From an uncultured Gammaproteobacteria bacterium (GTDB lineage: Bacteria > Patescibacteriota > Patescibacteriia > Magasanikbacterales > GWA2-37-8): a stretch of 64,000 nucleotides of DNA. A program made the position numbers and the translations under genes. The notes under the pieces were generated by a model that saw only the letters and a program-made list of their open reading frames with translations, was not told the origin of the DNA and did not search any database. The first letter of the stretch is position 1. Every line of letters starts with the position of its first letter. Where the stretch lies: contig CAZQUL010000001.1 of assembly GCA_964596525.1 (NCBI GenBank), forward strand, positions 524,830-588,829. Direction: 5' to 3'. This document shows positions 42,401-56,261 of this stretch, one piece after another.

Positions 42401-42612
42401 ATGGCAGGATTAGAGATCTGTTTAAAGATCCTGCGCTGGGCGCTGCTGGTACCGGGTACCGGACGATTGCCACTAAGGCGCGAACCGGCAAGTCGTTTGA
42501 TGAAGTTATGGCTGATGTTGAATCAACCTATGCGGCTACTCGTGCAACAACCACTACGCGCCGCACCCGCACTACGGGTGGTCCGAGCTCCCGCCCTGCG
42601 TCGTCACCTTAG
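39439..42612 (+). CDS. VirB6/TrbL-like polytopic membrane protein with a long charged coiled-coil C-terminal extension
   Basis: 1,057-aa product. A signal-peptide-like N-terminus and Gly/Ser linker are followed by at least 6 TM helices with a TrbL/VirB6-like pattern (ILLMIARLFLALTTFFINVILVIAGY..., ...FYIVILLVIAFATILGVEGYEW..., ...GSAILVNFSRTICGFLIDGSQVIMITFLNAMS..., ...LIFSALVMAVVGAYVFILLARLIRLWVLIVLSPLVFVL...). The remaining ~650 aa are K/E/A-rich and predicted coiled coil. Confidence 0.6.
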   Translation: MLQTLRAWAQNLVTKAWNHRTWLAIVGVASFFILVLISSADPTWAQTTGSGSTASGGGGFYSVINSTEEQIKAGASTASGIGADIANSLGNVFGRAIAAILLMIARLFLALTTFFINVILVIAGYNGYLESTAVNLGWTVIRDITNMFYIVILLVIAFATILGVEGYEWRQLLPKLVGSAILVNFSRTICGFLIDGSQVIMITFLNAMSATIGGNVINAFKLPSFEKFHSAVDPNSFASPGILVSSIVALIFSALVMAVVGAYVFILLARLIRLWVLIVLSPLVFVLRVLPSTAGFVSEWWTQLTDDLVTGPVLVFFLWLSLIVVGSGQINQEVIKGSRLADKSPIEQAFGAQEQKYGPTDILGANNLANFFIAIGMLLAGAKAASKIGGSSGNLINSAMNTGWQIAKIATGAYIGSRIAQSGKSAAGSVFSTVMSPVTKLGKKAGLRLGAWKEDKIDTWRDKKAKEWSQKGQAWGDRFGIAGRVAGALLPGLASSVIQSKDRGEAIMGKYEEYRKQASERHKTLLGTSVEGISKKVIHGAQQLKKIQEEDAASGALKRAEIERTYEEASGKIGGFLKPHEDRVAEAKKELDKAEKTGNSLLIEPARAQLKSAEAALKKEMANLKEAGYDSKYIRYYELDKAATKADVKSQEALEIIQAASAQQKAEERDALRVARGERPVYVQEFFSSQEKKRTELLGNYSDDELVAEIGKLSDSLRDVNTRLANVKDQDERDSLQDKIKGQTIEMARLQSEAARRGGAQAQSARKAAAATFTDDISLDDAVGQQAMYLSGVLGKSIQATEASVKAAFDELKERFGTAYEFNAYMKNLVDRERNAMSSGALGLGATIRPVYDDAAKQMTYKPVSMRDRTVRSGSTDAQWMRDNRTFAAGNWKLAKTVDFEGSLDRRGGKYVISSPTAVRAIADKFGSLKGEQINKIQRHHVERLKEAIKNMNDAEVRNFVQAMAARFPQDPKKFAQNFGTLLSRIDNGRIRDLFKDPALGAAGTGYRTIATKARTGKSFDEVMADVESTYAATRATTTTRRTRTTGGPSSRPASSP

Positions 42613-42629
42613 TCCCTGTCTCTTAGCGT

Positions 42630-43676
42630 ATGATTCTTGAATCTTTACAACAGCAAAAAAAGCTCACGCCCGAGGAGCTCTCTAAGGCCGAAGAAGAGTA
42701 CCGAGATCTTGATCCCAAAGGTGAAGCTGAACTTTGGGACGGGCTCCACTACTATTTCTTGCGCGCCTCAGTTACTGCTGACCGGGTCTGGTGGCTATCG
42801 TATTTTCGGTGGTACACCGAACTGACGTGGCGTTTTTTGCCACAGCGCTCCGACGAAGTGGTTTCGGCTGTTGCCTATGCGCGCCAGCTTGTTATGGCAG
42901 TGCTTCTTGATTTCGACCCGGTGACAGAGCTTATCATGTATATCAATGAAAAACCGTGGGACGAAGAGGGGGTGGCGCGTTTTTACACCCGGGTTCGCGA
43001 CGGTGTGATGAAAAGTTCGGCGATTGTTGGTGTGAGTAAGGGGCGTGAGATAACCTTGGCTGATCTTTTCCGCGAACTTTCCCTTATCAAGCAAGCAAAT
43101 GACACGCTGCGTATGGCGGAGTTCATCACTCGTTTACGCGATGTGCTCTTTCCCAAAACCGATACGCTTCTTGATGAATACGTGCCGATGGAAGCGGAGC
43201 GCGGCGCTAACGTGCTGACTGACGTAATGCTCTTCTTTTTAGAGGTCGTGCCGGAGTCGTTCTACGCTGTTATGCAGACATCTTTGCATCCCGAATACTA
43301 CGAAACAGGAGCTGCCGAAGGAGAGTCTGCTTCTCCTGCTGAAGAGGCAGAGGCCGACCTTTCTTCTGAACCGGCTGAAGAATCGATTGAAGGTGCGGAA
43401 TCGGTAGCGCCTGCGCAGAGTGAGGAGGCCGGAATTGATGAGTCGGCTGCTACACCAAACGTGTCCGAAGAAACCCCGCGCGCACCGAGCCGACCTACTA
43501 ACACTGAGTTGCGGGCCATGGTAGAGGCGCTTATTCCTGCCGATCTCCCGCCCGAAGAACAAGCTCCACGGATCGTGGAAATGCTCTCCGACTTGGCTGA
43601 CCGTTACCATGATGAAACGATCCGCGACGTATATTACTTTGATGAAACGACCGGGCGCTTTGAATGGCTCCCATAA
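42630..43676 (+). CDS. Hypothetical acidic protein of the T4SS-like operon
   Basis: 348-aa product, E/A/S-rich acidic centre, no TM. Gap of 18 nt from the upstream gene. Confidence 0.45.
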   Translation: MILESLQQQKKLTPEELSKAEEEYRDLDPKGEAELWDGLHYYFLRASVTADRVWWLSYFRWYTELTWRFLPQRSDEVVSAVAYARQLVMAVLLDFDPVTELIMYINEKPWDEEGVARFYTRVRDGVMKSSAIVGVSKGREITLADLFRELSLIKQANDTLRMAEFITRLRDVLFPKTDTLLDEYVPMEAERGANVLTDVMLFFLEVVPESFYAVMQTSLHPEYYETGAAEGESASPAEEAEADLSSEPAEESIEGAESVAPAQSEEAGIDESAATPNVSEETPRAPSRPTNTELRAMVEALIPADLPPEEQAPRIVEMLSDLADRYHDETIRDVYYFDETTGRFEWLP

Positions 43677-43687
43677 CCTGTTTGCGT

Positions 43688-44554
43688 ATGCCTGCCTTCA
43701 TTACCGTAAAAAAACCCGACGGTACCACCGAGAAAATTTCGATGGAGGAGTTTTTGGCACGACAGAAAAAAAGCGCCCCTCCGGTGCAGTCTGTTGCTTC
43801 GGCACCTGCCCCAACACCGTCTGCTCCACGCGGTGATAGAACTATACTGGCTCAGCCATCGCAACCACTATCTGTTTCCCTCGAAGATGAGATGGTACAG
43901 CCGGAAACCGCACCACCTTTTCCGCCTATGCCGGCACCAGTCCTTTCTTCTCAACCAGAGGAGATGCATACCAGTGAGATTGAAAAGGCGCGTGAGGCAA
44001 TAATGCGCATGTCGGATACGAGTGTGGCTACCGCTACCCCGTTTAATGCATTTAAACACGATGCCGATGTCTCGATGGGGCCACCGGCTACTCCTCCGGC
44101 GCCGCCCGCCGCGGTCCCGCCACTCAAACCATCGCTCTTGGCTGAAGAACCGTCTGAAGAAGAAGCTCTTTCCCCGCCGCCACCGCTTACAAATTTTTCA
44201 TCGCGCCGCCCGATTATGAACGATGTGGTGGCGGCGCCGCGTTCCATCGGTCCGATTGAGGAAATCCAGGCCATAACACTCGTCGATTTCCGACGCTTGT
44301 CGCCTGTTGAGCGTGATGCGGCGATGCGGCTTGAGCAGAAATTCAATAATCTCAAAGCCGAATCGATTCTTTTGTTCTGGCAAGCCCGTGCTGCCTGGAA
44401 AGAAAGCGAGTTGTATCACGTCCTCACGACACCGTTTCTTTCGGCGCTTTTGCGGCGTGAACCGTTGAATCGCTTTTTAGGTAAAGAGAAGGGGATAACC
44501 ATGGCTGAGGTCATAGCGCTCCTTGATATGGAACGCCGTCTTATCCACGATTAA
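43688..44554 (+). CDS. Hypothetical Pro/Ala-rich protein of the T4SS-like operon
   Basis: The likely start is MPAFITVKKPDG. The PAPTPSAP, PPFPPMPAP and PPATPPAPPAAVPP tracts suggest an extended linker or periplasm-spanning protein. Confidence 0.4.
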   Translation: MPAFITVKKPDGTTEKISMEEFLARQKKSAPPVQSVASAPAPTPSAPRGDRTILAQPSQPLSVSLEDEMVQPETAPPFPPMPAPVLSSQPEEMHTSEIEKAREAIMRMSDTSVATATPFNAFKHDADVSMGPPATPPAPPAAVPPLKPSLLAEEPSEEEALSPPPPLTNFSSRRPIMNDVVAAPRSIGPIEEIQAITLVDFRRLSPVERDAAMRLEQKFNNLKAESILLFWQARAAWKESELYHVLTTPFLSALLRREPLNRFLGKEKGITMAEVIALLDMERRLIHD

Positions 44555-44557
44555 TCT

Positions 44558-45028
44558 ATGCGACAGTTCGTCGTCCCGCAATTTATCGACGTAGAAGATA
44601 AGATTCTGGGTCCGATTACGGTGCGGCAGTTCCTTATCCTGCTCGTCACCGGCCTGATCTTATTCATCATGTTCAAGCTTTTTGATTTTGCCTTGTTCGT
44701 GGTGAGCGGATTTTTCATAGGCGGTTTTGCACTGGTCGTGGCGTTTGTGAAAATTAACGGCCAGGCGTTTCACTACGTACTCCTTAATGTGGGGCAGACG
44801 ATGCGCCAACCGGCACTGCGCATCTGGGACAAGCGGTATACCAAGCAAGAATTAGCCGATTTCCGCAAACCCTTCAAACCCGAAGAAGTGGAAGTGGTGC
44901 CGGTGAAAGCGGCATCTCCCCGCCATATCCGCGACCTGTCGCTTCTCGTAAACACTGGCGGCTACTATAACCCGAAAAGTTCCATGAAAGACGAAGTGCC
45001 CGACCGTCCGCGAGTGAAAATCACCTAA
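44558..45028 (+). CDS. VirB3-like small 2-TM protein (PrgI/TcpE-type), immediately upstream of VirB4
   Basis: 156-aa product. ITVRQFLILLVTGLILFIMFKLFDFALFVVSGFFIGGFALVVAF forms a hairpin TM pair. It sits just before the VirB4 gene, as VirB3 homologs do in Gram-positive-type T4SS. Confidence 0.45.
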   Translation: MRQFVVPQFIDVEDKILGPITVRQFLILLVTGLILFIMFKLFDFALFVVSGFFIGGFALVVAFVKINGQAFHYVLLNVGQTMRQPALRIWDKRYTKQELADFRKPFKPEEVEVVPVKAASPRHIRDLSLLVNTGGYYNPKSSMKDEVPDRPRVKIT

Positions 45029-45042
45029 CTTCCCCGATCATT

Positions 45043-45732
45043 ATGAAAAACAAAAAGGCCGATCAAAAACGCAAACGCATTCCCGCGGCCCAACACTATT
45101 TACCGATCGCGGAAATCAAGAACGATACGGTTATCATGAAAGACGGCACTCTCCGCGCGGTGCTTCTGGTTTCGAGTATCAATTTTGCCCTCAAAAACGA
45201 AGACGAACAGAACGCCATCGTTTCTTCGTATGTCGGTTTCCTCAATTCGCTCGAACACCCGCTTAACATCGTTATTCAATCGCGCAAACTCAACATTAAG
45301 CCATACCTAGAAAAACTCGCCGAGCAAGAACGCCAGCAGACCAACGAACTTCTGCGCACGCAAATCGCTGACTACCGTTCGTACATCTTGGAACTCATCA
45401 GTTTGGGCGAGATTATGAGTAAGCAGTTTTACGTCATCGTGCCGTATGATCCGGCATCCAACAAATCGAAGAGTTTCTGGACGCGTTTGGGTGAAGTGGT
45501 AAATCCGGTGCAGGGCGTGCGCCTTAAGGGTGAGCGATTCCTTAAGCGCAAATACGAGCTTGACATGCGGGTGCGCCAGGTGGAAGCCGGTCTTTCGAGC
45601 ATGGGTCTTACCATCGCACAACTTGATACGCAAGCACTCATCGAACTTTATTATTCCACATATAATCCGGATATTGCCTTGGTGCAGAAGCTGCCCAATA
45701 TCGAAGAACTCCGGGTTGAGAAGGAAGGCTAA
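45043..45732 (+). CDS. VirB4/TrbE/CagE-family ATPase, N-terminal domain (split from the ATPase domain by a frameshift)
   Basis: IPAAQHYLPIAEIKNDTVIMKDGTLRAVLLVSSINFALKNEDEQNAIVSSYVGFLNSLEHPLNIVIQSRKLNI matches the CagE_TrbE_VirB N-terminal domain pattern. It ends at a TAA at 45730, and the next ORF continues the same protein family in another frame. Confidence 0.6.
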   Translation: MKNKKADQKRKRIPAAQHYLPIAEIKNDTVIMKDGTLRAVLLVSSINFALKNEDEQNAIVSSYVGFLNSLEHPLNIVIQSRKLNIKPYLEKLAEQERQQTNELLRTQIADYRSYILELISLGEIMSKQFYVIVPYDPASNKSKSFWTRLGEVVNPVQGVRLKGERFLKRKYELDMRVRQVEAGLSSMGLTIAQLDTQALIELYYSTYNPDIALVQKLPNIEELRVEKEG

Positions 45733-45743
45733 TCCCGCTTTGT

Positions 45744-47609
45744 ATGGCTTTCAAACCCACATCATCACAACGCATCACCCCCAAGAACGTACTCATGCAG
45801 GAGCAGAAACGGGTGGAGGAAAAGACTTCTGAGGAGCTTCTGACGCTCGAGGAAGAAAAAGTTTACCGCGAAGGTGTCGTGAGCATCCGTGATCTCATCG
45901 CTCCGGCTGCGTTCAAAGTGGATTCCAATTACATCCAGCTCGGTACGGTGTTTTGCCGCACCATTTTTATTACCTCGTATCCGCGCTACATCACGATCGG
46001 CTGGAGTTCGCCGATCATCAATCTGTCGGTGACGATGGATATCTCGATGTTTTTCTATCCGGTCAAATCCGCGATTATTCTGAAGCAGCTCAAAAATAAA
46101 GTGGGTGCTTTACAGGCTCAACTCTCTGCAGACCGTGAAAAAGGTGCGCCGCGTGACCCGCTGCGCGAAACCGCGCTGCGCGATATCGAAGGTTTGCGTG
46201 ACGATCTGACGCAGGGTACCGAGCATTTTTTCCAGTTCGCGTTTTACGTCACGTTTTATGCCGAGAGCAAAGAGCGCCTCGATCAGTTGAGCGAAGATAT
46301 CGAAGGTATCTTTGGCGCCAAACTCATCACGAGCCGCAAAGTACTTTACCAAAGCGAGCAAGGCTTCGATTCTACATTGCCTTTAGCCAATGACGAGCTG
46401 ATGATTTCTTTCAATATGAACTCGTCGCCAATTGCGGCTTCATTCCCGTTCATTTCGGCTGAGCTCACCTCCGATGATGGCATTTTATACGGTATCAACC
46501 GTCATAATAACAGCCTTATCCTCTTCGACCGTTTTTCGCTCCAAAACGCCAACATGGTGGTGTTCGCAACGTCCGGTGCGGGTAAAAGTTATGCTATCAA
46601 GCTCGAGATTTTGCGTAGTCTCATGATGGGCGTTGATGTCATCATTATCGACCCGGAAATGGAATATAAGCATCTGTCGGATGCGGTGGGCGGTACGTAC
46701 ATTAATATCTCTCTGTCGTCTGAGAGCAAGATCAATCCCTTCGACTTGCCGCGCCCGTATGGTCAGGATATGACGGTTGAAGATATTATTCGAAGCGCTG
46801 TCATTACCACCAAAGGCCTTATCCGTATCATGTGCAACGGCCTTACGACCGAGCAGGACTCGGTGATGGATCGCGCGCTCATCGAAACGTACGCTAAAAA
46901 AGATATTACGCCGGGAACGGATTTGGCCACCGCCAAACCGCCGATCATGCAGGATCTGCAAGAGGTTTTGGAAGGCATGGAAGGGTCCGAAGAGCTTGTC
47001 CTTAAACTCAAGAAATATACCGAAGGTACGTTTGCCGGACTCTTCAATTCGCCGACCAATGTGGATATGCGCAACCAACTCGTGATCTTCAGTGTGCGCG
47101 ATTTGGAAGACGAACTGCGCCCGCTCGCCATTTACGCCATCATCAACTACATCTGGAACGTGGTGAGGAGTGAACGCAAGAAACGCATTCTGGTTATCGA
47201 TGAAGCCTGGTGGATGATGCAGCATGAAGACAGTGCGCGGTTTATTCACGCGCTCATCAAACGCTGCCGCAAGTACTATCTCGGCGTGACGACCATCACC
47301 CAAGACGTTAATGACTTTTTGCGCTCGGCATACGGACAATCTATCGTTACCAACTCGGCACTCCAGCTCCTCTTGCGCCAATCGCCCTCGGCCATTGATC
47401 TTATCCAGAAGGTCTTCCTTCTTACCGATAGCGAAAAGTACCTGCTTCTCCAGAGCGGCGTGGGTGAGGGGATTTTCTTCGCCGGTTCCAAGCATGCGGC
47501 TATTCGCGTAGTCGCTTCGCCGACCGAAGACCAAATCGTCACTACCAACCCGCAGCAGCTTATCGAAATTGAGAAAAATAAGAAGAAGTTTGAACAAGCT
47601 TTTAGCTAA
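45744..47609 (+). CDS. VirB4/TrbE/CagE-family ATPase, central and C-terminal ATPase domains
   Basis: FATSGAGKSYAIKLEI is the Walker A. RILVIDEAWWMM is the Walker B (DEAW). YYLGVTTITQD is a motif-C-like block. The N-terminal segment ...YIQLGTVFCRTIFITSYPRYITIGW... corresponds to the VirB4 linker region. Confidence 0.8.
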   Translation: MAFKPTSSQRITPKNVLMQEQKRVEEKTSEELLTLEEEKVYREGVVSIRDLIAPAAFKVDSNYIQLGTVFCRTIFITSYPRYITIGWSSPIINLSVTMDISMFFYPVKSAIILKQLKNKVGALQAQLSADREKGAPRDPLRETALRDIEGLRDDLTQGTEHFFQFAFYVTFYAESKERLDQLSEDIEGIFGAKLITSRKVLYQSEQGFDSTLPLANDELMISFNMNSSPIAASFPFISAELTSDDGILYGINRHNNSLILFDRFSLQNANMVVFATSGAGKSYAIKLEILRSLMMGVDVIIIDPEMEYKHLSDAVGGTYINISLSSESKINPFDLPRPYGQDMTVEDIIRSAVITTKGLIRIMCNGLTTEQDSVMDRALIETYAKKDITPGTDLATAKPPIMQDLQEVLEGMEGSEELVLKLKKYTEGTFAGLFNSPTNVDMRNQLVIFSVRDLEDELRPLAIYAIINYIWNVVRSERKKRILVIDEAWWMMQHEDSARFIHALIKRCRKYYLGVTTITQDVNDFLRSAYGQSIVTNSALQLLLRQSPSAIDLIQKVFLLTDSEKYLLLQSGVGEGIFFAGSKHAAIRVVASPTEDQIVTTNPQQLIEIEKNKKKFEQAFS

Positions 47610-47635
47610 AGAATCTACTTTTTTACGCTACCTGT

Positions 47636-48253
47636 ATGTCCATACGCTTACGACTGGCCATTATCCTCATCGGTATCGTTTTGGTAATCGCGGGGATTGT
47701 GTACGTAGTAATCATCAACACTAAAAAACGCGGATTGCCGACCGACACTCCGAATACCCCGCAAACCGGGCAGGTGATCGACTCGAGCACCTTTACCACC
47801 AACTCGCTTGCGGCGATCACCGGTTCGGGTGCAAACCCGGTACCCACCACCACGCAACCCATCACCAACCCGATTGAGCTAGAAAAACTGGGCGTGGAAC
47901 GGCTCGCTTCGGTGTTTGCCGCACGCTACGGCTCATTTTCGTCAGATAACAGCTATCAGAATGTCCGTGAGGTGGAACAGCTCGCCACCCGCGCGCTATG
48001 GGCTAAAATCCGCCCCCCGAGCTCTCCGCGACCGGCCGCTACGTTCAGCGGCGTTACGACCGAGGTGCTCATGACCAAACTCACTACGTGGGCCGATGCT
48101 GCCGCAACGGTGGAAGTAACCGCCTCGCGCACCGAAACAACGCTCGCGACCGGCGTACCGTCCACTACCGTCTATCAGCAAAAAGCCACGATCAACTTAG
48201 TGAAGCAGGGCACGAATTGGCTCGTCGATAGCTTCACCTGGCTCAAGCCGTAA
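47636..48253 (+). CDS. Bitopic membrane protein (N-terminal TM plus ~170-aa extracytoplasmic domain); possible VirB8-like component
   Basis: TM LAIILIGIVLVIAGIVYVVII. The topology and size fit VirB8-like proteins, but no motif confirms this. Confidence 0.35.
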   Translation: MSIRLRLAIILIGIVLVIAGIVYVVIINTKKRGLPTDTPNTPQTGQVIDSSTFTTNSLAAITGSGANPVPTTTQPITNPIELEKLGVERLASVFAARYGSFSSDNSYQNVREVEQLATRALWAKIRPPSSPRPAATFSGVTTEVLMTKLTTWADAAATVEVTASRTETTLATGVPSTTVYQQKATINLVKQGTNWLVDSFTWLKP

Positions 48254-48260
48254 GAACTCT

Positions 48261-48986
48261 ATGGAGGGGGTCTTACAGCGAACCTGGGAGGGCATCAAAA
48301 ATGCCTTTTTCCCTATCACGTGCGTAGCTTGTGGCTCATATGGAGCCTGGTGTTGTGCTACGTGCCAAGGCACAGCCGAGCGTATGCGCCACCAGGGTTG
48401 CCCGGTGTGCACGCTTCCTACGCCGCGCGGCGCGCTGTGCAATGATTGTTTGCCGGTATCGCACCTCGATGGTGTAACTGCGTTTTATCAGTACGAAGAA
48501 CGTAAGGTTGTTGCCGAACTCATTAAAGCTCTCAAGTACAGCCGTGCCACCGAAACCATTGCTGCCCTGCGTGGTCTTCTCAACACGGCGGAAAAAGATT
48601 TTGTGCCGCACGTCGCGGTACATGAATTCATTGTCATCCCCGTACCTCTTCACCCGCGCCGTTTTAATGAGCGCGGTTTTAACCAGGCCGAACTCCTTAG
48701 CCGACTTCTCCTTGAAACGCATGCCGATACCTTGCCTGCGGCAACCGTCGTTGTCGGCGATTTGGCGCGCGTGCGCTACACCAATCCGCAGGCCGAGCAG
48801 AGCGGCACAGTGCGCCGTACCAACGTAAAAGATGCCTTTGCATGGCTGGGAGCCGGCAAAGCACCCTCCCACGTACTGCTTGTTGACGACGTATTTACGA
48901 CCGGCAGTACCATGCAGGAGTGTGCCCGGGTGCTTAAGCATCACGGGGCAGAGTGGGTGTGGGGTGTGGCTGTAGCGCGCGGTTAG
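48261..48986 (+). CDS. comFC: ComF-family protein (ComFC; phosphoribosyltransferase-type competence protein)
   Basis: N-terminal double Cys pairs (CVACGSYGAWCCATC...CPVCTL...CNDC) and the C-terminal PRTase motif VLLVDDVFTTGSTMQE are the ComFC/GntX hallmarks. Confidence 0.8.
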   Translation: MEGVLQRTWEGIKNAFFPITCVACGSYGAWCCATCQGTAERMRHQGCPVCTLPTPRGALCNDCLPVSHLDGVTAFYQYEERKVVAELIKALKYSRATETIAALRGLLNTAEKDFVPHVAVHEFIVIPVPLHPRRFNERGFNQAELLSRLLLETHADTLPAATVVVGDLARVRYTNPQAEQSGTVRRTNVKDAFAWLGAGKAPSHVLLVDDVFTTGSTMQECARVLKHHGAEWVWGVAVARG

Positions 48987-49093: not shown

Positions 49094-49182
49094 GGAGACG
49101 TGGCCGAGTTGGTCTAAGGCGCCTCACTGCTAACGAGGTAGGGCCTCAAAAACCCTCGCGAGTTCGAATCTCGCCGTCTCCG
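49094..49182 (+). tRNA. tRNA-Ser (anticodon GCU), type II with a long variable arm
   Basis: GGAGACGtgGCCGAGTTGGTCTAAGGCgcctcaCTGCTAAcgaggtAGGGCCTCAAAAACCCTcGCGAGTTCGAATCTCGCCGTCTCCg. The acceptor stem is GGAGACG/CGTCTCC. The D-loop GAGTTGG-TCTAA is typical for Ser. The anticodon loop is CU-GCU-AA. There is a long extra arm, and the CCA is not encoded. Confidence 0.85.
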
Positions 49183-50773: not shown

Positions 50774-51439
50774 ATGCGAATTTTGCTTATTGAAGACGCT
50801 CCGGATATTGCCCGTTTGATTGTAACCTGCCTTGAGGCAGAGTGTTTTGTGATTGACGTTGCGACCGATGGGGAGAAGGGTTCGTTTTTGGCTCGTACTA
50901 ACTATTATGATTTGGTTATTCTCGACAACATGCTGCCGCAGAAAAATGGCCGACAGGTATGCGATGAAATACGGATGGCCGGAAAAACCATGCCCATCTT
51001 GATGCTCTCCGTTATCGCTGAAACGAAGAAAAAAGTGGAGATGCTCAATGCTGGTGCCGACGATTATCTCACTAAGCCGTTCTCGGTACAAGAACTTGTG
51101 GCCCGGGTGAAAGCGCTCCTTAGGCGGCCGCGGGAGGCGCGTAAAGAGCAGTACGCGCTCGGTGATATTGTGCTCGACGGCGCGCGCCATGTAGTTGTCA
51201 AAGCCGGCAAAGAAGTATATCTGACGCGTAAGGAGTTTTCACTGCTCGAATACTTGCTTCAGAACGTTGATATCGCCCTTTCAAGATCGATGATTATGGA
51301 ACATGTATGGGATATCAACGCCGATCCTTTTTCTAACACCATTGAATCGCACATCATGAGCGTGCGCAAAAAAATTGATCCGGACGGGCGCTATATCATG
51401 ACAGTACCTGGCATCGGTTATAAAATAGTGAGCCCGTAA
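50774..51439 (+). CDS. OmpR/PhoB-family response regulator
   Basis: Receiver domain (MRILLIEDAPDIARLI...DLVILDNMLP...MLSV...ADDYLTKPF). C-terminal winged-helix (LTRKEFSLLEYLLQN...SRSMIMEHVW). Confidence 0.9.
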   Translation: MRILLIEDAPDIARLIVTCLEAECFVIDVATDGEKGSFLARTNYYDLVILDNMLPQKNGRQVCDEIRMAGKTMPILMLSVIAETKKKVEMLNAGADDYLTKPFSVQELVARVKALLRRPREARKEQYALGDIVLDGARHVVVKAGKEVYLTRKEFSLLEYLLQNVDIALSRSMIMEHVWDINADPFSNTIESHIMSVRKKIDPDGRYIMTVPGIGYKIVSP

Positions 51440-51600
51440 AAATGCGTACTGCAGTAAGCCTTGAAATCTATCGACCGCGATAGGTTTTTTGGTTATCTAA
51501 TTTTTTATCATTTTTCTATTTTATTTCCATAAACAGATCATGTCTTATTGATTATTCCTTGAGGTGCATTCGGTTACGATAGACGCACTTTTCTTCGTAC

Positions 51601-52290
51601 ATGACTACGCGCCATACAAATCTTTGGAAGGATGTGCGAGCGGTTACGCAGCGTGAGCGCCTCGCTATCGGTTACCACGGCGTGCGCGACCGATGGCAAG
51701 AAGCGCCGGCGGAGTTTACCGACGATACACTCGTTATCTGCGGTCACCCGGTTATGGAGCGATGGGAAGATGAGTATATGCGGACCTTGGCGCGCATTGC
51801 GACTAAGCCAGGCGCTACGGTACTTGAAGTAGGTTTCGGGCTCGGCATTTCTGCGGCCTATGTACAAAAGGGGTTGCCTGGCAAGCATATCGTTATTGAA
51901 GCCAACGCTGACGTGTTCAGGCGTTTGGAAGAGTTTAAAAACCAGGCGCGCTTTCCGGTTGAACCATTGTTTGGTTTTTGGGAAGAACGCGTGCGCGAAA
52001 TTCCCGATCTAAGTATTGACGGCATTCTCTTTGACACGTATCCGCTTGCCGAAAATGAAATCCACACCAATCATTTTCGTTTTTTCGCGGAAGCGTTTCG
52101 GATGCTCAAACCTGGCGGTGTGCTCACATACTACTCGGATGAAATACACGATTTTTCGCCGCGCCACCGCGAGGGTCTCAACCGAGCCGGTTTTACCGCT
52201 ATCGACAAAGAGATTTGCGCAGTCGAACCGCCGCCCGCGTGCCGCTACTGGAAAAGTCCGACTATCGTCGCGCCGATCATCACCAAATAA
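51601..52290 (+). CDS. Guanidinoacetate N-methyltransferase (GAMT)-like SAM-dependent methyltransferase
   Basis: Block-by-block agreement with the animal GAMT sequence as recalled from memory (not searched): VMERWE, VLEVGFGLGISAAYVQ (motif I), IVIEANADVFRRLEEF, IDGILFDTYPLAENEIHTNHFRFF, LKPGGVLTYYS, and the C-terminal CRYWKSPTIVAPIITK (GAMT: CRYYAFPQMITPLVTK). Confidence 0.7.
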   Translation: MTTRHTNLWKDVRAVTQRERLAIGYHGVRDRWQEAPAEFTDDTLVICGHPVMERWEDEYMRTLARIATKPGATVLEVGFGLGISAAYVQKGLPGKHIVIEANADVFRRLEEFKNQARFPVEPLFGFWEERVREIPDLSIDGILFDTYPLAENEIHTNHFRFFAEAFRMLKPGGVLTYYSDEIHDFSPRHREGLNRAGFTAIDKEICAVEPPPACRYWKSPTIVAPIITK

Positions 52291-52299
52291 ATTCATATC

Positions 52300-52686
52300 A
52301 TGAAGACTGTTACGTACGGACAACATCTGATGGTGGATTGCTACGACGCAGACCCGGGGCGGCTTCATGATATTAATCGCATTTATCGGTTTCTCGATAC
52401 GCTGCCCGTGCTCATCGGTATGGAAAAAATCGGGCCGCCACAGCTCGCGGTGTTTGATGATCCGGCGCTTGCGGGCATTACGGGTATCGTCATGATCGTC
52501 ACGTCGCATATCAGTATCCATACTTACAGTAATAAGGACTGCTTTTTCTTGGATGTGTTTTCGTGCAAACCGTTTCCCGTTGATGTGGTGCTCAGGCATG
52601 CGGAGGAGTATTTTCGCATGCAGCGTTTCGAGAAGTACGAAGTGGAACGAGGGCGGGAGTTTCCGGCCGAGAATCTGCATGCATGA
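52300..52686 (+). CDS. S-adenosylmethionine decarboxylase proenzyme-like (class 1a pyruvoyl-dependent decarboxylase; possibly an arginine/ornithine decarboxylase)
   Basis: 128-aa product. GQHLMVDCYDAD...GITGIVMIVTSHISIHTYSNKDCFFLDVFSCKPF matches the SpeH/AdoMetDC consensus (G.HL..D...CD...G.SG...IAESHISIHTWPE.GY.A.DVFTCG). The self-cleavage site is T-S rather than the usual E-S. Confidence 0.65.
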   Translation: MKTVTYGQHLMVDCYDADPGRLHDINRIYRFLDTLPVLIGMEKIGPPQLAVFDDPALAGITGIVMIVTSHISIHTYSNKDCFFLDVFSCKPFPVDVVLRHAEEYFRMQRFEKYEVERGREFPAENLHA

Positions 52687-52701
52687 TGCGAGGAGGATTC
52701 C

Positions 52702-53424
52702 ATGTTGAAAATCGGCGTTTCGGTACGTTGCGCAGAAGAGAAAGATTTTGGCGGCCTGGAAGAGCTTGAGCGTGCCGTATGGGGAGAAGAAGGGACCGAT
52801 GTATATACCGCCGAGCATTTTGCGGCTTGGCGCGAAGTGCACCCCGAGGCCTTCCTTGTGGCCGAAGAAGAGGGGAAACTGGTCGGGCTCGCTTTTTCCC
52901 AAACGATGCAGCTTGATGAGTTTAGTTTGCCCCCTGGAGCGACTTTTAACTCCATTACTGATTACGGTCGAGCGCGTGCGACGCACTCCCGCAGTGGGAA
53001 TGTGCATTTCGGGGTAACCATTTGCTCGGTGTCGCGTGGAGCAGGGGGTGCGCTCATCCGCTCGGCACTGGCAATTGCCCGGCGGAACAAGCGGTTGCAA
53101 TTCGGCGTGGCGCGACTACCCGGGTTTGCGGCCTACGCTCTTGAACGAGAGCGGCGGGTCGGCTACCCGCTTACGCCGGACCAAGAAGCCGATCTCGCAT
53201 TGCACTACGTGCTCGAGAGCGTTAGAATGGTGGGTGGTGAGCGGCATCCTCTTGAGCGCTTTACGCCGCGCGAATCGTATCCGAAGCTCTCTGCACCCGA
53301 CGCGGTGTTGCGTACTTACCTGCGCCATGCGGAATTCCGGTTCTACCAACTTTTGCCAGCGTTCTGGGTTGATCCGAAGTGTCGCGGATTTAGCGTGCTG
53401 TTTGGTGAAGTTCATGCGCTATAA
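52702..53424 (+). CDS. GNAT-family N-acetyltransferase-like protein
   Basis: 240-aa product. FLVAEEEGKLVGLAFSQ resembles GNAT motif A/B-region architecture. It lies in the same tight operon as the two preceding genes. Assigned at low confidence. Confidence 0.4.
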   Translation: MLKIGVSVRCAEEKDFGGLEELERAVWGEEGTDVYTAEHFAAWREVHPEAFLVAEEEGKLVGLAFSQTMQLDEFSLPPGATFNSITDYGRARATHSRSGNVHFGVTICSVSRGAGGALIRSALAIARRNKRLQFGVARLPGFAAYALERERRVGYPLTPDQEADLALHYVLESVRMVGGERHPLERFTPRESYPKLSAPDAVLRTYLRHAEFRFYQLLPAFWVDPKCRGFSVLFGEVHAL

Positions 53425-53438
53425 GTAGTTAAGAAGGT

Positions 53439-55490
53439 GTGTTTTACATTACGTACATCGCCATTGCCTGTGGCATCTTATCGGTAGCTGCCGGCTCCTT
53501 CGTTCTCTATAAACGCCCCGATCGCTTGGGGCGTTATTTCGGTTTATATATTGTATTCATCGCGATCTGGATGATCGGTAATGCAGGTGCGGATCGGGCA
53601 GCTACCGATTTCGCGCTGCGTTGGTGGAGTGGTTGGTGCGTGGTGGGGGGAGTAGGGCTCGTGAGTTGGTACCTGTGTTTTGTGGAATTTTTCGTTACCG
53701 AAAGACCGCTTGGCCATCTGCGGCGCGCCATTATTTTCGTGCCGGCGATTATTTTTTCGATGCTAGGTTTTACGCCGCTCTATGTGGTGGAAACCATTTT
53801 TATTCCGGGTGCGCCGGCGCAGATCGTGCCCAGTCCGCTTAATTATCTCATTTTGAGTTATTCGACGATTGGTAATGTGTATGGTCTTGTTCGCCTTATC
53901 CGTCATTACGGCGCTGCACCGTACCGCAAGCGCAAGCAGATCGTGTACTTAGCGGTTGGATTTTTCGTGTTGACGGTTGGGGGCAGCATTCTAACCATTA
54001 TATTGCCTTTCCGCGGTGAATACCGCTTCTTTACGCTCGGGTCGCTTTCCTCCCTGGCCGCAATCGGTTGCGGGGCGTACGCTATTTTCCGGCACCAGCT
54101 CCTCGATATCCGCATCGTCATTCAGCGCGGTTTTATCTATACGGTCATGCTGGTGAGCGGTGTTGGTTTATATGCTGGTTTGTTGTTTTTATCCATCGCC
54201 TTTTTTCAATCGGCTAGCCGTTCGACGTATTTTGTGAGCGCTCTTGTTACGGCCGTCATCGGCATGTTTACCGGTCCTTTGATTGATAAAAAATTACGCG
54301 CCTGGACTGATCCAATTTTCTTTAAGGACACTTACCGCTTTTCAAGCGCGATCAAAGAACTCAGCGAGATCGTTAGCCGTTACAACCGCCTGAGCGATAT
54401 CATCACGTTTTCAGCGGAGGCGCTGCGAAGGATTCTGCGTATCCGCGAAGTATGTTTTTGTCTCAAGCCCGAATATGGCCGTAGCTTCCTCTACGAAGCT
54501 GCTTCGGGTCGACCCGTGCCGATCGCGACGCTCGTTGCGCCCCTTAATTCGACCGATGGAAAGCTTTTTTCGAACGGATTTTCAGCTGTAGTTATGCCGC
54601 TCATACTCGAAGGGCAGATTATTGGCGTGGTCGTCCTTGGACCCAAGCTCTCGGGTGGAGATTTCACTGATGAAGACCGCGAACTCCTCAAGGCTTTTTG
54701 TCCACAGGTGGCTGTGGCGCTCAAAAAGGCTCTTTTGTATCAAGAGGTATTCGATTATTCGAAGAATTTGCAAAACAAGGTGGCGGAGCGTACCCGCGAG
54801 ATTCAAGAATTGCAAGAACAGCAGGCACGACTTATGCTGGATATTTCGCATGAACTTCAAACGCCCCTAACCATCATCAAAGGCGAGCTGGAATTATTGC
54901 GGCAAGGAACACACGACGAGCGCAAGATGCTCCCACTCGAAAAATCGGTTGATCGCGTTTCCATGTTTATTCGTTCTCTTCTTAAACTCGCGAAGCTTGA
55001 AACCGAACATGCGCTCTCGCCTAAGACGGTGGTTGATTTTTCAGCACTCGTTGAGGAGGTGATAGAGTATGTAACTGTCCTTGCTAACGCTCAAAATGTC
55101 GCCATTAAAACGTGGGTCGAGCCCGATTTGCGCATTATGGGTAACCGTGAGCAGCTTGAGCAGCTTATCACCAACCTTTTGAGCAATGCTATTAAATATA
55201 TCGCGCGCGAACGGCTCGTAACCGTGAACGTAGTGCGTTCCGAAGAGCGTGTGCGTTTCGTAGTGCAAGATACCGGTGTCGGTATTGATAAAGATAAGCT
55301 GGCCTCGCTTGGGCAGCGGTTTTTCCGCGCTGCCACTTCAGCCGAGGGGACGGGGCTCGGGCTCGCCATCTGTCAGAGTATCGTAAAAAACCACCAGGGT
55401 ACGTTTCATATCGAAAGTGAGGTTGGGAAGGGAACAACCATAACCGCAGAACTTCCGTTGTGCCCCGCAAACGACGCAACCACCCGCTGA
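53439..55490 (+). CDS. Sensor histidine kinase with a large N-terminal polytopic membrane sensor domain and a GAF-like middle region
   Basis: About 7 TM helices in the first 270 aa. The HisKA H-box is DISHELQTPLTIIKG. The HATPase_c boxes are N (LLSNAIKY), G1 (DTGVGI) and G2 (GTGLGLAICQSIV). Confidence 0.9.
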   Translation: MFYITYIAIACGILSVAAGSFVLYKRPDRLGRYFGLYIVFIAIWMIGNAGADRAATDFALRWWSGWCVVGGVGLVSWYLCFVEFFVTERPLGHLRRAIIFVPAIIFSMLGFTPLYVVETIFIPGAPAQIVPSPLNYLILSYSTIGNVYGLVRLIRHYGAAPYRKRKQIVYLAVGFFVLTVGGSILTIILPFRGEYRFFTLGSLSSLAAIGCGAYAIFRHQLLDIRIVIQRGFIYTVMLVSGVGLYAGLLFLSIAFFQSASRSTYFVSALVTAVIGMFTGPLIDKKLRAWTDPIFFKDTYRFSSAIKELSEIVSRYNRLSDIITFSAEALRRILRIREVCFCLKPEYGRSFLYEAASGRPVPIATLVAPLNSTDGKLFSNGFSAVVMPLILEGQIIGVVVLGPKLSGGDFTDEDRELLKAFCPQVAVALKKALLYQEVFDYSKNLQNKVAERTREIQELQEQQARLMLDISHELQTPLTIIKGELELLRQGTHDERKMLPLEKSVDRVSMFIRSLLKLAKLETEHALSPKTVVDFSALVEEVIEYVTVLANAQNVAIKTWVEPDLRIMGNREQLEQLITNLLSNAIKYIARERLVTVNVVRSEERVRFVVQDTGVGIDKDKLASLGQRFFRAATSAEGTGLGLAICQSIVKNHQGTFHIESEVGKGTTITAELPLCPANDATTR

Positions 55491-55505
55491 GGGTGGTCGT
55501 CGGTT

Positions 55506-56261
55506 TTACTTTTGTTCGCGCGCGTCGCAGTAGGCGATCATTCCATCGTGCATCACCTTCGCCAAGCCCTCGGCATATTTTTCGTAATACGCCGTGAAGC
55601 GCGGATCCTGGATGTACATCTCCGCAAGTCCGCGGTAGAGCTCGAGGTTTGGTTCGTACCAGGTACGCAAGCTGTTGTAGTGTTCGTCGATCAGCTTCTG
55701 GAATTCGGGGCTTGTTGCGCCTTTCGGCATCGTTTCGGCTACGACTTTCATAAAAACATCAGCGTCTTTTTTGAGTTTGGCCATGTCCGCTTTGGTCATT
55801 TTTTTGAGACGCTCCTGCGATTGTCGGTAGGCCTCGGTGCGGCCCCAGCGTTCTTTCACTTCGGCGGCGTACTGTTTTTGCTCTTCGTCCTTGAAGGCAT
55901 CATAGAGTTCGTCGTCATGCATAGATGTTTCGTGGTTAAGTTTCTTAAGGGTCTTGTCGATGGTGGTGATAAGACCGTTCAGTCTTTTTTTCTTGAGCTC
56001 GATGAGTTTCCGGTGGTCGAGAAGCGCGCTTCGCATATCGAAGTATTGGGATGAGAGGGTGCGCTTGATATCGTCGAGGGAAAAATCGAGTTCGCGAAAA
56101 AAGAGGATCTGCTGAAGTTTAAGAAGTTCAGCTTCTCCATATTCGCGGTAACCGTTGTGCCGGATACGCGAGGGTTTAAGAAGCCCGATCTCGTCGTAGT
56201 AGTGCAGCGTGCGCACGCTGACACCCGCGAGAGTGGCGAGCTTGTGGATGGTGTAGGCCAT
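55506..56261 (-). CDS. MerR-family transcriptional regulator, TipAL-like (with a C-terminal TipAS-type ligand domain)
   Basis: MAYTIHKLATLAGVSVRTLHYYDEIGLLKPSRIRHNGYREYGEAELLKLQQILFFRELDFSLDDIK is the MerR HTH-dimerisation signature. The ~140-aa C-terminal helical domain is typical of TipAS/Mta. Confidence 0.8.
   Translation of the reverse strand: MAYTIHKLATLAGVSVRTLHYYDEIGLLKPSRIRHNGYREYGEAELLKLQQILFFRELDFSLDDIKRTLSSQYFDMRSALLDHRKLIELKKKRLNGLITTIDKTLKKLNHETSMHDDELYDAFKDEEQKQYAAEVKERWGRTEAYRQSQERLKKMTKADMAKLKKDADVFMKVVAETMPKGATSPEFQKLIDEHYNSLRTWYEPNLELYRGLAEMYIQDPRFTAYYEKYAEGLAKVMHDGMIAYCDAREQK

Follow-up and report, generated by a model that had tools for sequence, protein, structure and literature searches.

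Several described systems resemble parts of the locus presented here. In rat guanidinoacetate N-methyltransferase (GAMT), we take Glu45 to be the guanidino-binding residue, and a loop with Leu170/Thr171 presumably holds the carboxylate of guanidinoacetate. Spermidine synthesis is encoded in speE-speD operons and in SpeE-SpeD fusions. The operons agrBDCA, cqsA-cqsS and luxM-luxN each combine the gene for a signal synthase with that for a polytopic receptor kinase, and the kinases AgrC, LuxN and CqsS have purely membrane-embedded sensors. Asp134 serves as proton acceptor of GAMT (PMC12471008). A bacterial relative of GAMT, BlsL, with a reported identity to GAMT of only 33%, methylates a guanidine nitrogen in a precursor of blasticidin S, and does so only once an amine of this substrate carries an acyl group (PMC5572114). 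[quoted passage not shown]

The locus is found in the 64,000-nucleotide stretch of DNA analysed here (the window) and is a self-contained module, in which a response regulator gene (RR) is followed by a four-gene operon encoding a GAMT-family methyltransferase (MT), an AdoMetDC-fold proenzyme (DC), a GNAT-fold protein (GN) and a histidine kinase (HK; Table 1). The five co-directional open reading frames on the + strand at 50774-55490 lie where the sequence-only reading had placed them, and their domains bear out its description of three linked genes between an OmpR-type regulator and a polytopic kinase. The gaps between the last four genes are 9, 15 and 14 nt, and a GAGGAGG Shine-Dalgarno sequence is found upstream of GN. 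Because a terminator-like hairpin follows the regulator gene, RR may have a transcript of its own, apart from that of the four genes 3´ of it.

Table 1. Features of the locus, in positions of the window.
Feature	Position	Strand	Basis
OmpR/PhoB-type response regulator (RR), 221 aa	50774..51439	+	Response_reg and Trans_reg_C
Terminator-like hairpin 3´ of regulator gene, 11-pair stem then T-run	51463..51488	+	Consensus scan, weak evidence
Direct repeat TTATC-N7-TTATC between RR and MT, candidate OmpR-type regulator site	51493..51509	+	Sequence read
GAMT-family SAM-dependent guanidino N-methyltransferase homologue (MT), 229 aa	51601..52290	+	PDB matches, PF27704
Class 1b AdoMetDC-fold pyruvoyl proenzyme (DC), 128 aa	52300..52686	+	PF02675, Ser/His/Cys triad
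GNAT-fold protein (GN), 240 aa, small family	52702..53424	+	AlphaFold2 model and Foldseek
Polytopic sensor histidine kinase (HK), 683 aa: N-terminal 7TM, GAF, HisKA, HATPase_c	53439..55490	+	Pfam and hydropathy scan
Terminator-like hairpin at kinase gene end	55479..55497	+	Consensus scan
MerR/TipAS regulator, next gene after HK	55506-56261	opposite	

The methyltransferase groups specifically with GAMT. Its PDB matches are rat GAMT (E 9e-45) and human GAMT (E 3e-44), as opposed to E 5e-4 for the next match, a class I methyltransferase; BLASTP aligns residues 32-229 with the rat enzyme at 43% identity, and a precomputed Pfam record assigns MT to PF27704 (GuanidinoAc_N-MeTrfase). The homology to vertebrate GAMT (PDB 1XCJ, 3ORH) is full-length and comprises EVGFG of motif I (EVGFGLG in MT), WE with Glu45, DTYP with Asp134, and the C-terminal CRY..P....P..TK block that had been pointed out from the sequence. 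Glu56 and Asp145 of MT, which correspond to rat Glu45 and Asp134, do not vary within the family, such that both the guanidino-binding Glu and the catalytic Asp are kept. From the full-length homology and the shared motifs, methyl transfer to a guanidino nitrogen is the chemistry to be expected of MT. To call the enzyme “eukaryote-like”, as was done initially, is misleading, since the family is large and broadly bacterial (658 proteins at E ≤ 1e-5; 186 species in a genome scan).

Unlike vertebrate GAMT, MT has a 13-residue deletion at the position of rat GAMT CNLTSWGELMKSK, followed by an invariant Y178-S179-D180-E181 (YSDE). The guanidinoacetate-carboxylate loop is deleted in all bacterial members examined but one. 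With this loop gone and the acidic Ser-Asp-Glu invariant, the tail pocket would suit an amine rather than a carboxylate. The strong similarity to GAMT, and the automated annotation of relatives as “guanidinoacetate N-methyltransferase”, could be taken to mean that MT is a genuine GAMT that produces creatine. The deletion and the acidic residues that follow it argue against this, and MT has a decarboxylase, an acyltransferase and a kinase as genomic partners instead of the amidinotransferase gene expected for GAMT, which is absent from the cassette. A real candidate would resemble the cyanobacterial homologue L080, where the loop is kept and the gene adjoins an amidinotransferase-like gene. We consider creatine production by MT extremely improbable.

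DC matches PF02675 (AdoMet_dc) with 75.6 bits (cut-off 25). The AdoMetDC fold proposed from the sequence is thereby supported, but the assignment to class 1a is not, as the 128-aa form is class 1b in AdoMetDC nomenclature (PMC10407285). Gene callers place the start 30 nt later (118 aa); a conserved N-terminal YGxHL strand favours position 52300. The Ser69/His74/Cys89 triad, including the self-processing Ser, is invariant across 29 aligned sequences, and cleavage is predicted between Thr68 and Ser69 (Ser codon at 52504-52506). The occurrence of Thr-Ser in place of Glu-Ser, noted earlier, is real and found throughout the closest sub-clade; at the processing site of other members of the same cassette, Glu-Ser is present. 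Against the curated AdoMetDC equivalog TIGR03330, DC scores 55.4 bits, which is below the cut-off of 75.65 and about one third of the scores of the AdoMetDCs from T. maritima (154.7 bits) and A. aeolicus (143.6 bits). The AdoMetDC motif HTWPE is replaced by HTYSN. The Pro of this motif is present in several decarboxylases of the cassette and of related group-2 loci (HTYPL, HTFPK), and its use for telling AdoMetDC from arginine decarboxylase is empirical. The low TIGR03330 score, the absence of the Pro, and the presence of a PLP-dependent decarboxylase in the same place elsewhere argue that DC is not an AdoMetDC, and we infer that it is an arginine-type amino-acid decarboxylase.

The opposite view would be a polyamine route, with DC as a true S-adenosylmethionine decarboxylase, the GAMT-like protein as an aminopropyltransferase replacing SpeE, and GN as an acetylase of the polyamine. 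The gene order and the MT-DC fusions described below indeed mirror speE-speD, in that a pyruvoyl enzyme of the SpeD fold comes after a methyltransferase-fold enzyme or is joined to it in one protein, and some members of the DC family reach or just exceed the AdoMetDC cut-off (76-80 bits) or retain the Pro. However, the first enzyme here retains the catalytic constellation of GAMT at 43% identity and has, in motif I, a Leu in place of the Asp by which spermidine synthases select decarboxylated SAM. Moreover, DC of the window has 55 bits vs 144-155 for genuine AdoMetDCs and fails the equivalog cut-off, and in other loci it is substituted by a LysA-like decarboxylase of the Orn/Arg/DAP type. The known substrates of this PLP-dependent family are basic or diamino acids, and we know of no action of this type on SAM. 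The polyamine route is very unlikely.

By sequence, GN gives only sub-threshold matches to GNAT families. Its AlphaFold2 model (pLDDT 95.4; 83-sequence alignment), searched with Foldseek, allows the predicted GNAT fold to be assigned with confidence, in agreement with the original proposal. The top matches are the SxtA DC domain, CurA GNAT_L and the GNAT-like decarboxylase GphF (E about 1e-9; TM 0.75-0.82 on the target), followed by Ard1/Naa and serotonin N-acetyltransferase, and the GN family profile matches GphF with E 1.1e-9. The family is small, with only 175 representatives among 1.84 billion clusters. Its nearest solved relatives are malonyl-thioester decarboxylase domains of polyketide loading modules, not N-acyltransferases, and an acyl-transfer role for GN is thus an assumption. 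GN shares the (T/L)H-x-P-x-G and DPVL motifs with these domains. The Thr of GVTR and the His of GFH in SxtA and GphF, which we take to be the catalytic pair corresponding to CurA Thr355/His389, align with Ala137 and Tyr206 of GN, two positions that vary within its family. Unlike the CurA, GphF and SxtA domains, GN stands alone, outside any ACP or PKS context, which makes a malonyl-decarboxylase function unlikely. GN would rather be an N-acyltransferase for the amine product, transferring an acyl group that is not necessarily acetyl.

The order MT-DC-GN-HK recurs in 15 further species. This conservation is far above chance, and the operon is conserved in many ultra-small Patescibacteria/CPR bacteria. 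MT and DC are joined in four distinct fusion proteins with pairwise identities of only 50-70%, and at least nine metagenome contigs, recognised by their equal lengths, have matches to both. The recurrent order, the fusions and the shared contigs argue for a functional coupling of MT, DC and GN. In related loci, MT retains a neighbouring polytopic kinase and its other partners are swapped for analogues. Eight loci of the Saccharibacteria type have the PLP-dependent LysA-like decarboxylase beside MT, in the place of DC, and Saccharibacteria loci with this enzyme have a FeeM-like N-acyl synthase instead of the GNAT. One of four amide-forming enzyme types accompanies MT in 32 of 80 loci: the GN family (15 loci), a PurD-like ATP-grasp ligase (12), a FeeM-like GNAT (four, in group 3) and a DUF2156/LPG_synthase_C transferase (one). 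EamA-type transporter genes are found in group 2 and are often present where the GNAT is replaced.

The reading we favour, with a probability of about 0.5, is that arginine is decarboxylated, N-methylated at the guanidino group and N-acylated at the amine under two-component control, the kinase possibly sensing the product. The substrate would be a basic amino acid with a guanidino group, L-arginine being the likeliest. The SpeD homologue would self-cleave at Thr68/Ser69 to generate an N-terminal pyruvoyl group and convert arginine (or N-methylarginine) into agmatine (or methylagmatine), the GAMT homologue would methylate a guanidino nitrogen with SAM as donor, using the same Glu/Asp pair as GAMT, and the GNAT-fold enzyme would acylate the primary amine freed by decarboxylation, not necessarily in this order. 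The frequent company of an amide-forming enzyme suggests amine acylation as a core step, and the exchanges for a PLP decarboxylase and a FeeM-like synthase in Saccharibacteria strengthen the reading. A unified pathway of this kind had been suggested from the window, and the grouping of MT with GAMT, the retained Ser of DC, the co-occurrence of the three genes and the partner swaps all agree with it. We found no description of such a pathway in the literature. If correct, it would constitute an apparently undescribed route to a methylated, acylated guanidino-amine, possibly a signalling molecule.

The same activities could instead serve, when induced, to modify or detoxify an external guanidino compound, e.g. 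an arginine analogue from the host or an antibiotic with a guanidino group; the kinase would sense the compound, and the enzymes would decarboxylate, methylate and acylate it into an inactive form. Drug modification is a classic role of GNAT acyltransferases and of methyltransferases, the genes appear to be under two-component control, transporter genes are found in related loci, and the organisms carrying the cassette are episymbionts of low biosynthetic capacity. Yet a translational MT-DC fusion is typical of a committed biosynthetic route, as is the repeated association of a decarboxylase, a methyltransferase and an amide-forming enzyme, and the requirement of a pyruvoyl or PLP decarboxylase for a free alpha-amino acid points to arginine-like primary metabolites. 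Detoxification is unlikely.

No decarboxylase was found within the fetched flanks of 11 of the 14 group-2 loci or of two loci with MT and HK only (L012, L078), and MT can thus work without one. That the MT-HK adjacency survives in the latter two without decarboxylase or acyltransferase is consistent with MT being a GAMT/RMT2-like protein arginine methyltransferase that acts on the kinase, the regulator or another protein in an adaptation-like control, with DC and GNAT functionally separate; the eukaryotic relative Rmt2 methylates protein arginine. Against this speak the fusion of MT to a small-molecule decarboxylase, its co-occurrence with transporter genes and amide ligases, and pocket residues that are those of the small-molecule enzyme GAMT. 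Protein methylation is very unlikely indeed.

RR matches Response_reg (E 1.2e-25) and Trans_reg_C (E 1e-22), its best NCBIfam matches are all under equivalog cut-offs, and an orthologue is found at the same place in most group-1 loci. HK matches HisKA_7TM, GAF, HisKA and HATPase_c in Pfam. An orthologous kinase gene lies directly 3´ of GN in all 15 full cassettes and a kinase gene directly 3´ of MT in group 2, and, across three different enzyme contexts, about 40 of 80 species have a polytopic kinase gene at most 5 kb from MT. This repeated and tight pairing, which the sequence-only reading did not remark on, may be the most interesting aspect of the locus. Between RR and MT, 4 of 16 loci have pairs of T[TA]ATC 11-12 bp apart (mean 0.13 and maximum 2 in 2000 shuffles; 0 loci on the opposite strand), an enrichment that is only suggestive, the pattern having been chosen after inspection of the data. 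The TTATC direct repeat is accordingly no more than a suggested binding site of the OmpR-type regulator. In the favoured pathway, this regulator, possibly via the repeats 5´ of MT, and the 7TM-GAF kinase would control the operon, and the kinase may sense the pathway product too.

One extension, which does not contradict the pathway, is that an N-acyl, N-methyl guanidino-amine is exported as a signal with the adjacent polytopic kinase as its receptor, in an autoinducing, quorum-sensing-like circuit. The bracketing of the enzyme genes by regulator and kinase, the wide recurrence of a polytopic kinase near MT, the EamA-type transporter genes in group 2, the FeeM-like N-acyl amino-acid synthase in group 3, and sensor domains that are wholly membrane-embedded, as in AgrC, LuxN and CqsS, would all fit. 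Still, an exporter gene is absent from the cassette in the window, the kinase might equally sense stress or substrate, and many biosynthetic operons adjoin two-component systems without being quorum-sensing systems. We regard such a circuit as a tentative and rather doubtful proposition.

MT, DC and GN are not homologous to the synthases of agrBDCA, cqsA-cqsS and luxM-luxN, and to our knowledge no quorum-sensing system of the agr/cqs/lux type has been described in Patescibacteria. The likeness is one of layout: biosynthetic genes adjoin a kinase with a membrane-embedded sensor and its regulator, and related loci of MT add transporter genes and, in group 3, a FeeM-type acyl-amide synthase. SpeDA and SpeDC (Li et al., 2023; PMC10407285) share with DC the small class 1b AdoMetDC fold and the Ser/His/Cys triad, and SpeD-derived decarboxylases likewise occur in CPR bacteria. 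In its residues, DC resembles SpeDA in having lost the AdoMetDC-specific Pro and SpeDC in its Thr-Ser cleavage site (as read off Fig. S5, PMC10407285), but is without the other diagnostic residues of SpeDC (Gln, Phe, Tyr), and it clusters with a GAMT homologue, not with speB, speY, hss or speE. From its published description, BlsL belongs to a Streptomyces nucleoside-antibiotic gene cluster, has a large peptidyl-nucleoside substrate and is not linked to a decarboxylase or kinase. What it has in common with the reaction proposed for MT is guanidine methylation of an arginine-derived moiety, and its dependence on prior acylation parallels the pairing of MT with an amide-forming enzyme.

Five co-directional ORFs on the + strand occupy positions 50774-55490 of the window and encode a response regulator (RR), a methyltransferase similar to guanidinoacetate N-methyltransferase (MT; GAMT), a SpeD-fold decarboxylase (DC), a GNAT-fold protein (GN) and a histidine kinase (HK). 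The gaps within MT-DC-GN-HK are only 9, 15 and 14 nt, an AT-rich spacer of 161 nt with a terminator-like hairpin separates RR from MT, a second hairpin ends the HK gene, and the gene that follows, for a MerR/TipAS regulator, lies on the opposite strand. For these reasons, the most fitting reading is a four-gene operon, MT-DC-GN-HK, with RR ahead of it. The cassette is found, identical, on two further assemblies from the same organism. Public gene calls start the DC gene at 52330, 30 nt downstream of the start adopted here, which gives 118 aa; the start at 52300 (128 aa) fits the family alignment better, since the later one would lose the conserved first beta-strand (YGxHLxxD).

Features of the cassette and the main sets of related loci (window positions, or locus and position within the locus)
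Feature	Position	Strand	Remark
RR, 221 aa	50774-51439	+	ORF
Terminator-like hairpin	51463-51488		in RR-MT spacer
TTATC-N7-TTATC direct repeat	51493-51509		in RR-MT spacer
MT, 229 aa	51601-52290	+	ORF
DC proenzyme, 128 aa	52300-52686	+	ORF
GN, 240 aa	52702-53424	+	ORF
HK, 683 aa	53439-55490	+	ORF
Second terminator-like hairpin	55479-55497		closes HK gene
Group 2 loci	L060:4010-10298, L049, L076 and 11 others		
Group 3 full loci	L051:3236-8669, L059, L064, L069		Saccharibacteria MAGs

Near neighbours of the cassette include a NUDIX-like gene, an ORF of 245 aa without assigned function, a tRNA, a ComF-like gene, a nucleotidyltransferase, an AHSA1-like gene, a cluster with a conjugation-type (VirB4/TraG-like) ATPase gene and the MerR/TipAS regulator. 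The immediate neighbours have no relation to polyamine or amine metabolism and do not accompany the cassette in other genomes. The window carries a class A bacterial RNase P RNA (162 bits; 14573-14993) and a tRNA gene (49094-49182), and it is ordinary DNA of the chromosome. It also holds a 2682-aa ORF plus a series of large ORFs without Pfam matches (29740-37788 and 39439-48253), the series ending with the VirB4/TraG-like ATPase (45744-47609) and followed by the ComF-like phosphoribosyltransferase (48261-48986). We take this run to resemble the conjugation-type or competence gene clusters associated with Patescibacteria.

The two regulatory proteins have the domains of a two-component pair of OmpR-family regulator and HisKA-family kinase. 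RR is of the standard OmpR type, with receiver and winged-helix domains, and HK joins a HisKA_7TM membrane region to a GAF domain and a catalytic core (HisKA, HATPase_c). A promoter scan was uninformative (5 sites, 5.6 expected). Of 16 loci, four, the window included, have direct repeats of T[TA]ATC spaced by 11-12 bp 5´ of the MT gene, against an expectation of 0.13 for a pattern that was defined post hoc. The two-component genes belong to the module, as in every full cassette the HK gene comes straight after those for the enzymes.

The sequence-only reading had placed MT close to GAMT, and this is borne out. Among PDB sequences, the best matches are rat GAMT (E 9e-45) and human GAMT (3e-44), with the next match at 5e-4; BLASTP gives 43% identity across residues 32-229, and existing annotation assigns the identical protein to PF27704 (GuanidinoAc_N-MeTrfase), a Pfam copy lacking PF27704 yielding weak generic class I methyltransferase matches only. 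The similarity is full-length and sets MT clearly apart from generic class I methyltransferases. The epithet "eukaryote-like" given in the same reading is misleading, since this is a large bacterial family, with 658 proteins at E<=1e-5 and relatives found across 186 species in the genome collection. Its members are mostly Patescibacteria but extend to Gemmatimonadota, actinomycetes, cyanobacteria and others.

The pocket residues expected of a GAMT are in place: Glu56 and Asp145, equivalent to rat Glu45 and Asp134, do not vary in any of 26 family members or of 22 sequences derived from the loci. Glu45 of rat GAMT is presumably the residue that binds the guanidino group. Asp134 is the proton acceptor of GAMT (PMC12471008). 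However, a 13-residue deletion at rat positions 168-180, where rat GAMT reads CNLTSWGELMKSK, is common to all bacterial members examined except one, and is followed by an invariant Tyr-Ser-Asp-Glu in the family alignment. We take the deleted loop (rat Leu170/Thr171 backbone) to be the holder of the guanidinoacetate carboxylate, based on the ternary-complex structures of GAMT. With this loop gone, MT is a GAMT homologue that is not predicted to be a guanidinoacetate methyltransferase. It probably keeps the chemistry, i.e., methyl transfer to a guanidino nitrogen, and the far end of its substrate would be something other than a carboxylate, more likely a cationic group. Genuine creatine synthesis is highly improbable as the role of the cassette, despite the similarity to GAMT, given the missing carboxylate loop and the lack of an amidinotransferase gene in the cassette. 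The one exception to the deletion is found in the cyanobacterium Dapis sp. BLCC M229 (L080:6515-9858; L numbers denote related loci fetched with the MT profile), the sole bacterial homologue examined that keeps a eukaryote-type loop (TYCNLTSWGNL-KSQY). Its gene lies between an EamA transporter gene and a gene for a 372-aa protein that weakly matches the amidinotransferase/arginine-deiminase superfamily. With this loop and these neighbours, the locus is a cyanobacterial candidate for the genuine making and export of creatine-type compounds from guanidinoacetate.

DC scores 75.6 bits against PF02675 (AdoMet_dc), and its nearest structures are the Aquifex and Thermotoga AdoMetDCs. The self-processing serine, Ser69, is invariant in 29 aligned sequences together with His74 and Cys89; the three align with Ser63, His68 and Cys83 of T. 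maritima, the processing and catalytic triad (Li et al., 2023; PMC10407285). The unusual Thr-Ser processing site noted from the sequence is real (Thr68-Ser69), although it marks only the closest sub-clade, other cassette members, fusion proteins among them, having Glu-Ser. The small form is class 1b in published nomenclature, rather than class 1a as initially labelled (PMC10407285). With the AdoMetDC equivalog model TIGR03330, DC reaches 55.4 bits and its relatives 55-80, against a cut-off of 75.65 and control scores of 154.7 (T. maritima) and 143.6 (A. aeolicus). The HTWPE motif reads HTYSN in the window DC, the Pro being absent, while some other members of the family have the motif Pro or Glu-Ser. 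This Pro (marker gamma) is reported to be fully conserved in bona fide AdoMetDCs and not to be conserved in SpeD-derived arginine decarboxylases; the latter (SpeDA) are polyphyletic and have no positive signature, loss of the AdoMetDC Pro being their sole sequence marker (PMC10407285). No spermidine synthase, which a true AdoMetDC needs as its partner, was found among the scanned genes adjoining the cassette. The low AdoMetDC scores, the missing HTWPE and the lack of an aminopropyltransferase gene in the cassette argue that DC would not act on SAM.

A polyamine route could still be built from a true AdoMetDC and an aminopropyltransferase derived from GAMT, and MT was considered for the latter role. 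This was rejected as unlikely because MT conserves the GAMT active site and has Leu at the position of the spermidine-synthase Asp, the residue that selects decarboxylated SAM. The scores of DC, and its replacement by a PLP enzyme in other loci, likewise make the polyamine route a poor prospect. An identity as SpeDC ornithine decarboxylase was considered on account of the Thr-Ser site, which is the self-processing site there too (OCR of Fig. S5, PMC10407285). However, of the four diagnostic residues (Gln, Thr, Phe, Tyr; positions inferred from that figure), the window DC shares only the Thr before Ser, and the cleavage-site stretch reads VMIVTSHISIHTYSN, compared to LVQLIETSLISGHFAN in characterised SpeDC fusion proteins. 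With the other diagnostic residues absent and many cassette members having Glu-Ser, this assignment was discarded.

By sequence methods, GN gives only sub-threshold GNAT matches, and a word-indexed homologue search with GN returned nothing but GN itself. The family, assembled from the fetched loci and an exhaustive HMMER search, is narrow, with 175 representatives among 1.84 billion clusters. That the third gene is GNAT-like, as first proposed, is upheld by structure: an AlphaFold model from an 83-sequence alignment has a pLDDT of 95.4 (36 from the single sequence). At E<=1e-3, it gives 138 PDB matches, of which the 50 listed are without exception GNAT-fold acyltransferases or GNAT-like domains. 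Heading those listed, at E about 1e-9, are GNAT-like decarboxylase domains from SxtA, CurA and GphF, followed by N-terminal acetyltransferases and serotonin N-acetyltransferase; the GN family profile matches GphF at E 1.1e-9. Residues 111-116 read R-G-A-G-G-A, with Gly113 nearly invariant, and are a candidate for motif A (R/Q-x-x-G-x-G/A), which binds the pyrophosphate of acyl-CoA. The catalytic pair of the GNAT-like decarboxylases (GNAT_L) is, we assume, Thr355/His389 of CurA. In contrast to the PKS-loading decarboxylases (GVTR/GFH in SxtA), GN has Ala137 and Tyr206 at these positions, which are S/T/A/P/V/C and H/Y/S/F in the family, while Arg138, Tyr169, Asp200 and Asp224 are invariant. A CurA-type malonyl decarboxylase was discounted because the catalytic pair is not conserved. 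The variable Thr/His positions and the invariance of other residues point to a GNAT-fold enzyme with an active site of its own, and several of its invariant acidic residues would suit a cationic substrate.

A scan with the MT profile, with one genome per species, yielded 80 loci. These were annotated by tblastn, home-made HMMs, Pfam and NCBIfam; gene calls are our own ORF picks, and for some MAGs the taxonomic label ("uncultured Gammaproteobacteria") may not be trustworthy. The expected co-occurrence of the three enzyme genes is seen in a first group of 15 species, all or nearly all Patescibacteria, that have MT-DC-GN-HK in the order of the window, usually preceded by RR. Two more species have MT-DC-HK with a different protein of 225 aa replacing GN, and one has RR-MT-HK only. 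At L003:7082-7759 and L005:2077-2742, the place of GN is held by an unrelated protein of 221-225 aa with no Pfam or NCBIfam match. MT and DC are also joined in four distinct fusion proteins (P0057, P0081, P0091, the last being that of L017, and L021; 50-70% pairwise identity; P numbers denote homologous proteins from searches), and at least nine metagenomic contigs, paired by their equal lengths, have matches to both. What looks like a fusion at L016 arises from a long overlapping reading frame and is excluded from the four. At L017:9095-9925, an extra amine N-methyltransferase gene of the NNMT/PNMT/TEMT family lies between the fusion gene and GN, which hints at a second N-methylation.

Related loci with other gene contents fall into two further groups. 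In group 2 (14 species), the order is EamA transporter, PurD-like ATP-grasp ligase, MT and a kinase of 550-570 aa, the N-terminal 290 residues of which are polytopic membrane segments. DC is present in three of these species only, between EamA and the ligase, and in L066 a DUF2156/LPG_synthase_C transferase replaces the ligase. In group 3 (eight Saccharibacteria-type species), MT adjoins a PLP-dependent decarboxylase of the Orn/Arg/DAP family that is LysA-like (about 200 bits; lysA cut-off 298), and four of the eight loci add a HisKA_7TM kinase and a FeeM-like synthase of N-acyl amino acids. These four are an analogous version of the window cassette, built from other enzyme families. With an hhalign probability of 11%, GN is not closely related to the FeeM-like protein, so that one has replaced the other by analogy and not as an orthologue. 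Across the whole set, a decarboxylase lies within 5 kb of MT in 31 of 80 loci, an amide-forming enzyme of one of four unrelated or only distantly related kinds accompanies it in 32, and a polytopic kinase in about 40.

Some loci stand apart. In a gammaproteobacterial MAG (L063:7953-12375), the genes after MT encode a 414-aa protein whose C-terminal domain is of the FGE-sulfatase type, a SpeD-like decarboxylase and an MFS transporter. This is another context pairing the methyltransferase with a decarboxylase. At L019:7374-8000 and L026:3419-4060, a segment of about 210 aa with 5-7 TM helices is in frame at the N-terminus of the MT ORF; that of L019 alone has a weak MtN3/SWEET (PQ-loop) match (E 1.2e-4, below the gathering cut-off). 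The segment may represent a transporter fused to MT, or else an upstream gene that was called wrongly. At L035:7950-10088 and L082:687-7701, GAMT homologues occur at least twice, as copies or fragments, within a few kb.

Taken together, we propose a pathway of arginine-type decarboxylation, guanidino N-methylation and amine acylation under two-component control, to which we assign a probability of about 0.5. The replacement of the pyruvoyl DC by a PLP-dependent enzyme of the Orn/Arg/DAP family in the same context suggests that DC decarboxylates a basic alpha-amino acid. Arginine, giving agmatine, would be the most economical substrate, as the partner MT shares with GAMT the site that binds the guanidino group. 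Since some amide-forming enzyme recurs, the amine that decarboxylation releases would be acylated, and the donor may differ between dialects, supplying acetyl, a longer acyl chain or an aminoacyl group. Two other readings of the cassette seem less attractive: inducible detoxification of an external guanidino compound is rather unlikely, and methylation of arginine residues in signalling proteins is very unlikely.

One speculative possibility, compatible with the proposed pathway, is that the kinase is the receptor for the pathway product. It is suggested by the pairing of MT with kinases, their polytopic sensor domains, the transporter genes in related loci and the FeeM-type synthase. N-acyl, N-methyl agmatine-like guanidino-amides might then, and we put this forward tentatively, constitute a new class of signals between cells or between symbiont and host in Patescibacteria. 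The polytopic HK beside MT would detect the guanidino-amide, with feedback on the operon through the OmpR-type RR. Across the radiation, the module would come in three or more enzyme dialects: a pyruvoyl decarboxylase with a GNAT_L-like protein, a PLP-dependent decarboxylase with a FeeM-like protein, and an ATP-grasp ligase with an EamA transporter.

Bacteria of the Candidate Phyla Radiation (CPR) have tiny genomes and very little biosynthesis. A module that keeps five genes in order in at least 15 such genome-reduced species, and that is rebuilt with analogous enzymes elsewhere, is likely to matter for their lifestyle. Its interest lies in this conservation, in the repeated rebuilding and in the prospect that it may be a pair of signal synthase and receptor. 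If the proposed pathway is correct, methylated, acylated agmatine-type compounds would be a new class of arginine-derived metabolites, bacterial GAMT homologues would gain a function beyond creatine synthesis, and the AdoMetDC fold would have a further neofunctionalised branch. If HK senses the product, these episymbionts would have a first signalling system based on a small molecule. As all three enzymes are small and soluble, the hypothesis lends itself to direct testing.

Full-text literature searches returned no description of this gene combination, and a GAMT partner is not mentioned in the paper on neofunctionalised SpeD homologues (PMC10407285). The proposed pathway is thus far undescribed; its enzymes are divergent representatives of known families, and its genes are set within a two-component system. 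Each enzyme departs from its nearest characterised relatives in at least one defining test, i.e., the GAMT loop, the AdoMetDC cut-off and motif, and the GNAT_L pair. A precedent for the pairing of methylation with amine acylation is BlsL, a bacterial GAMT relative, where methylation of the guanidine needs prior acylation of an amine in the substrate (PMC5572114).
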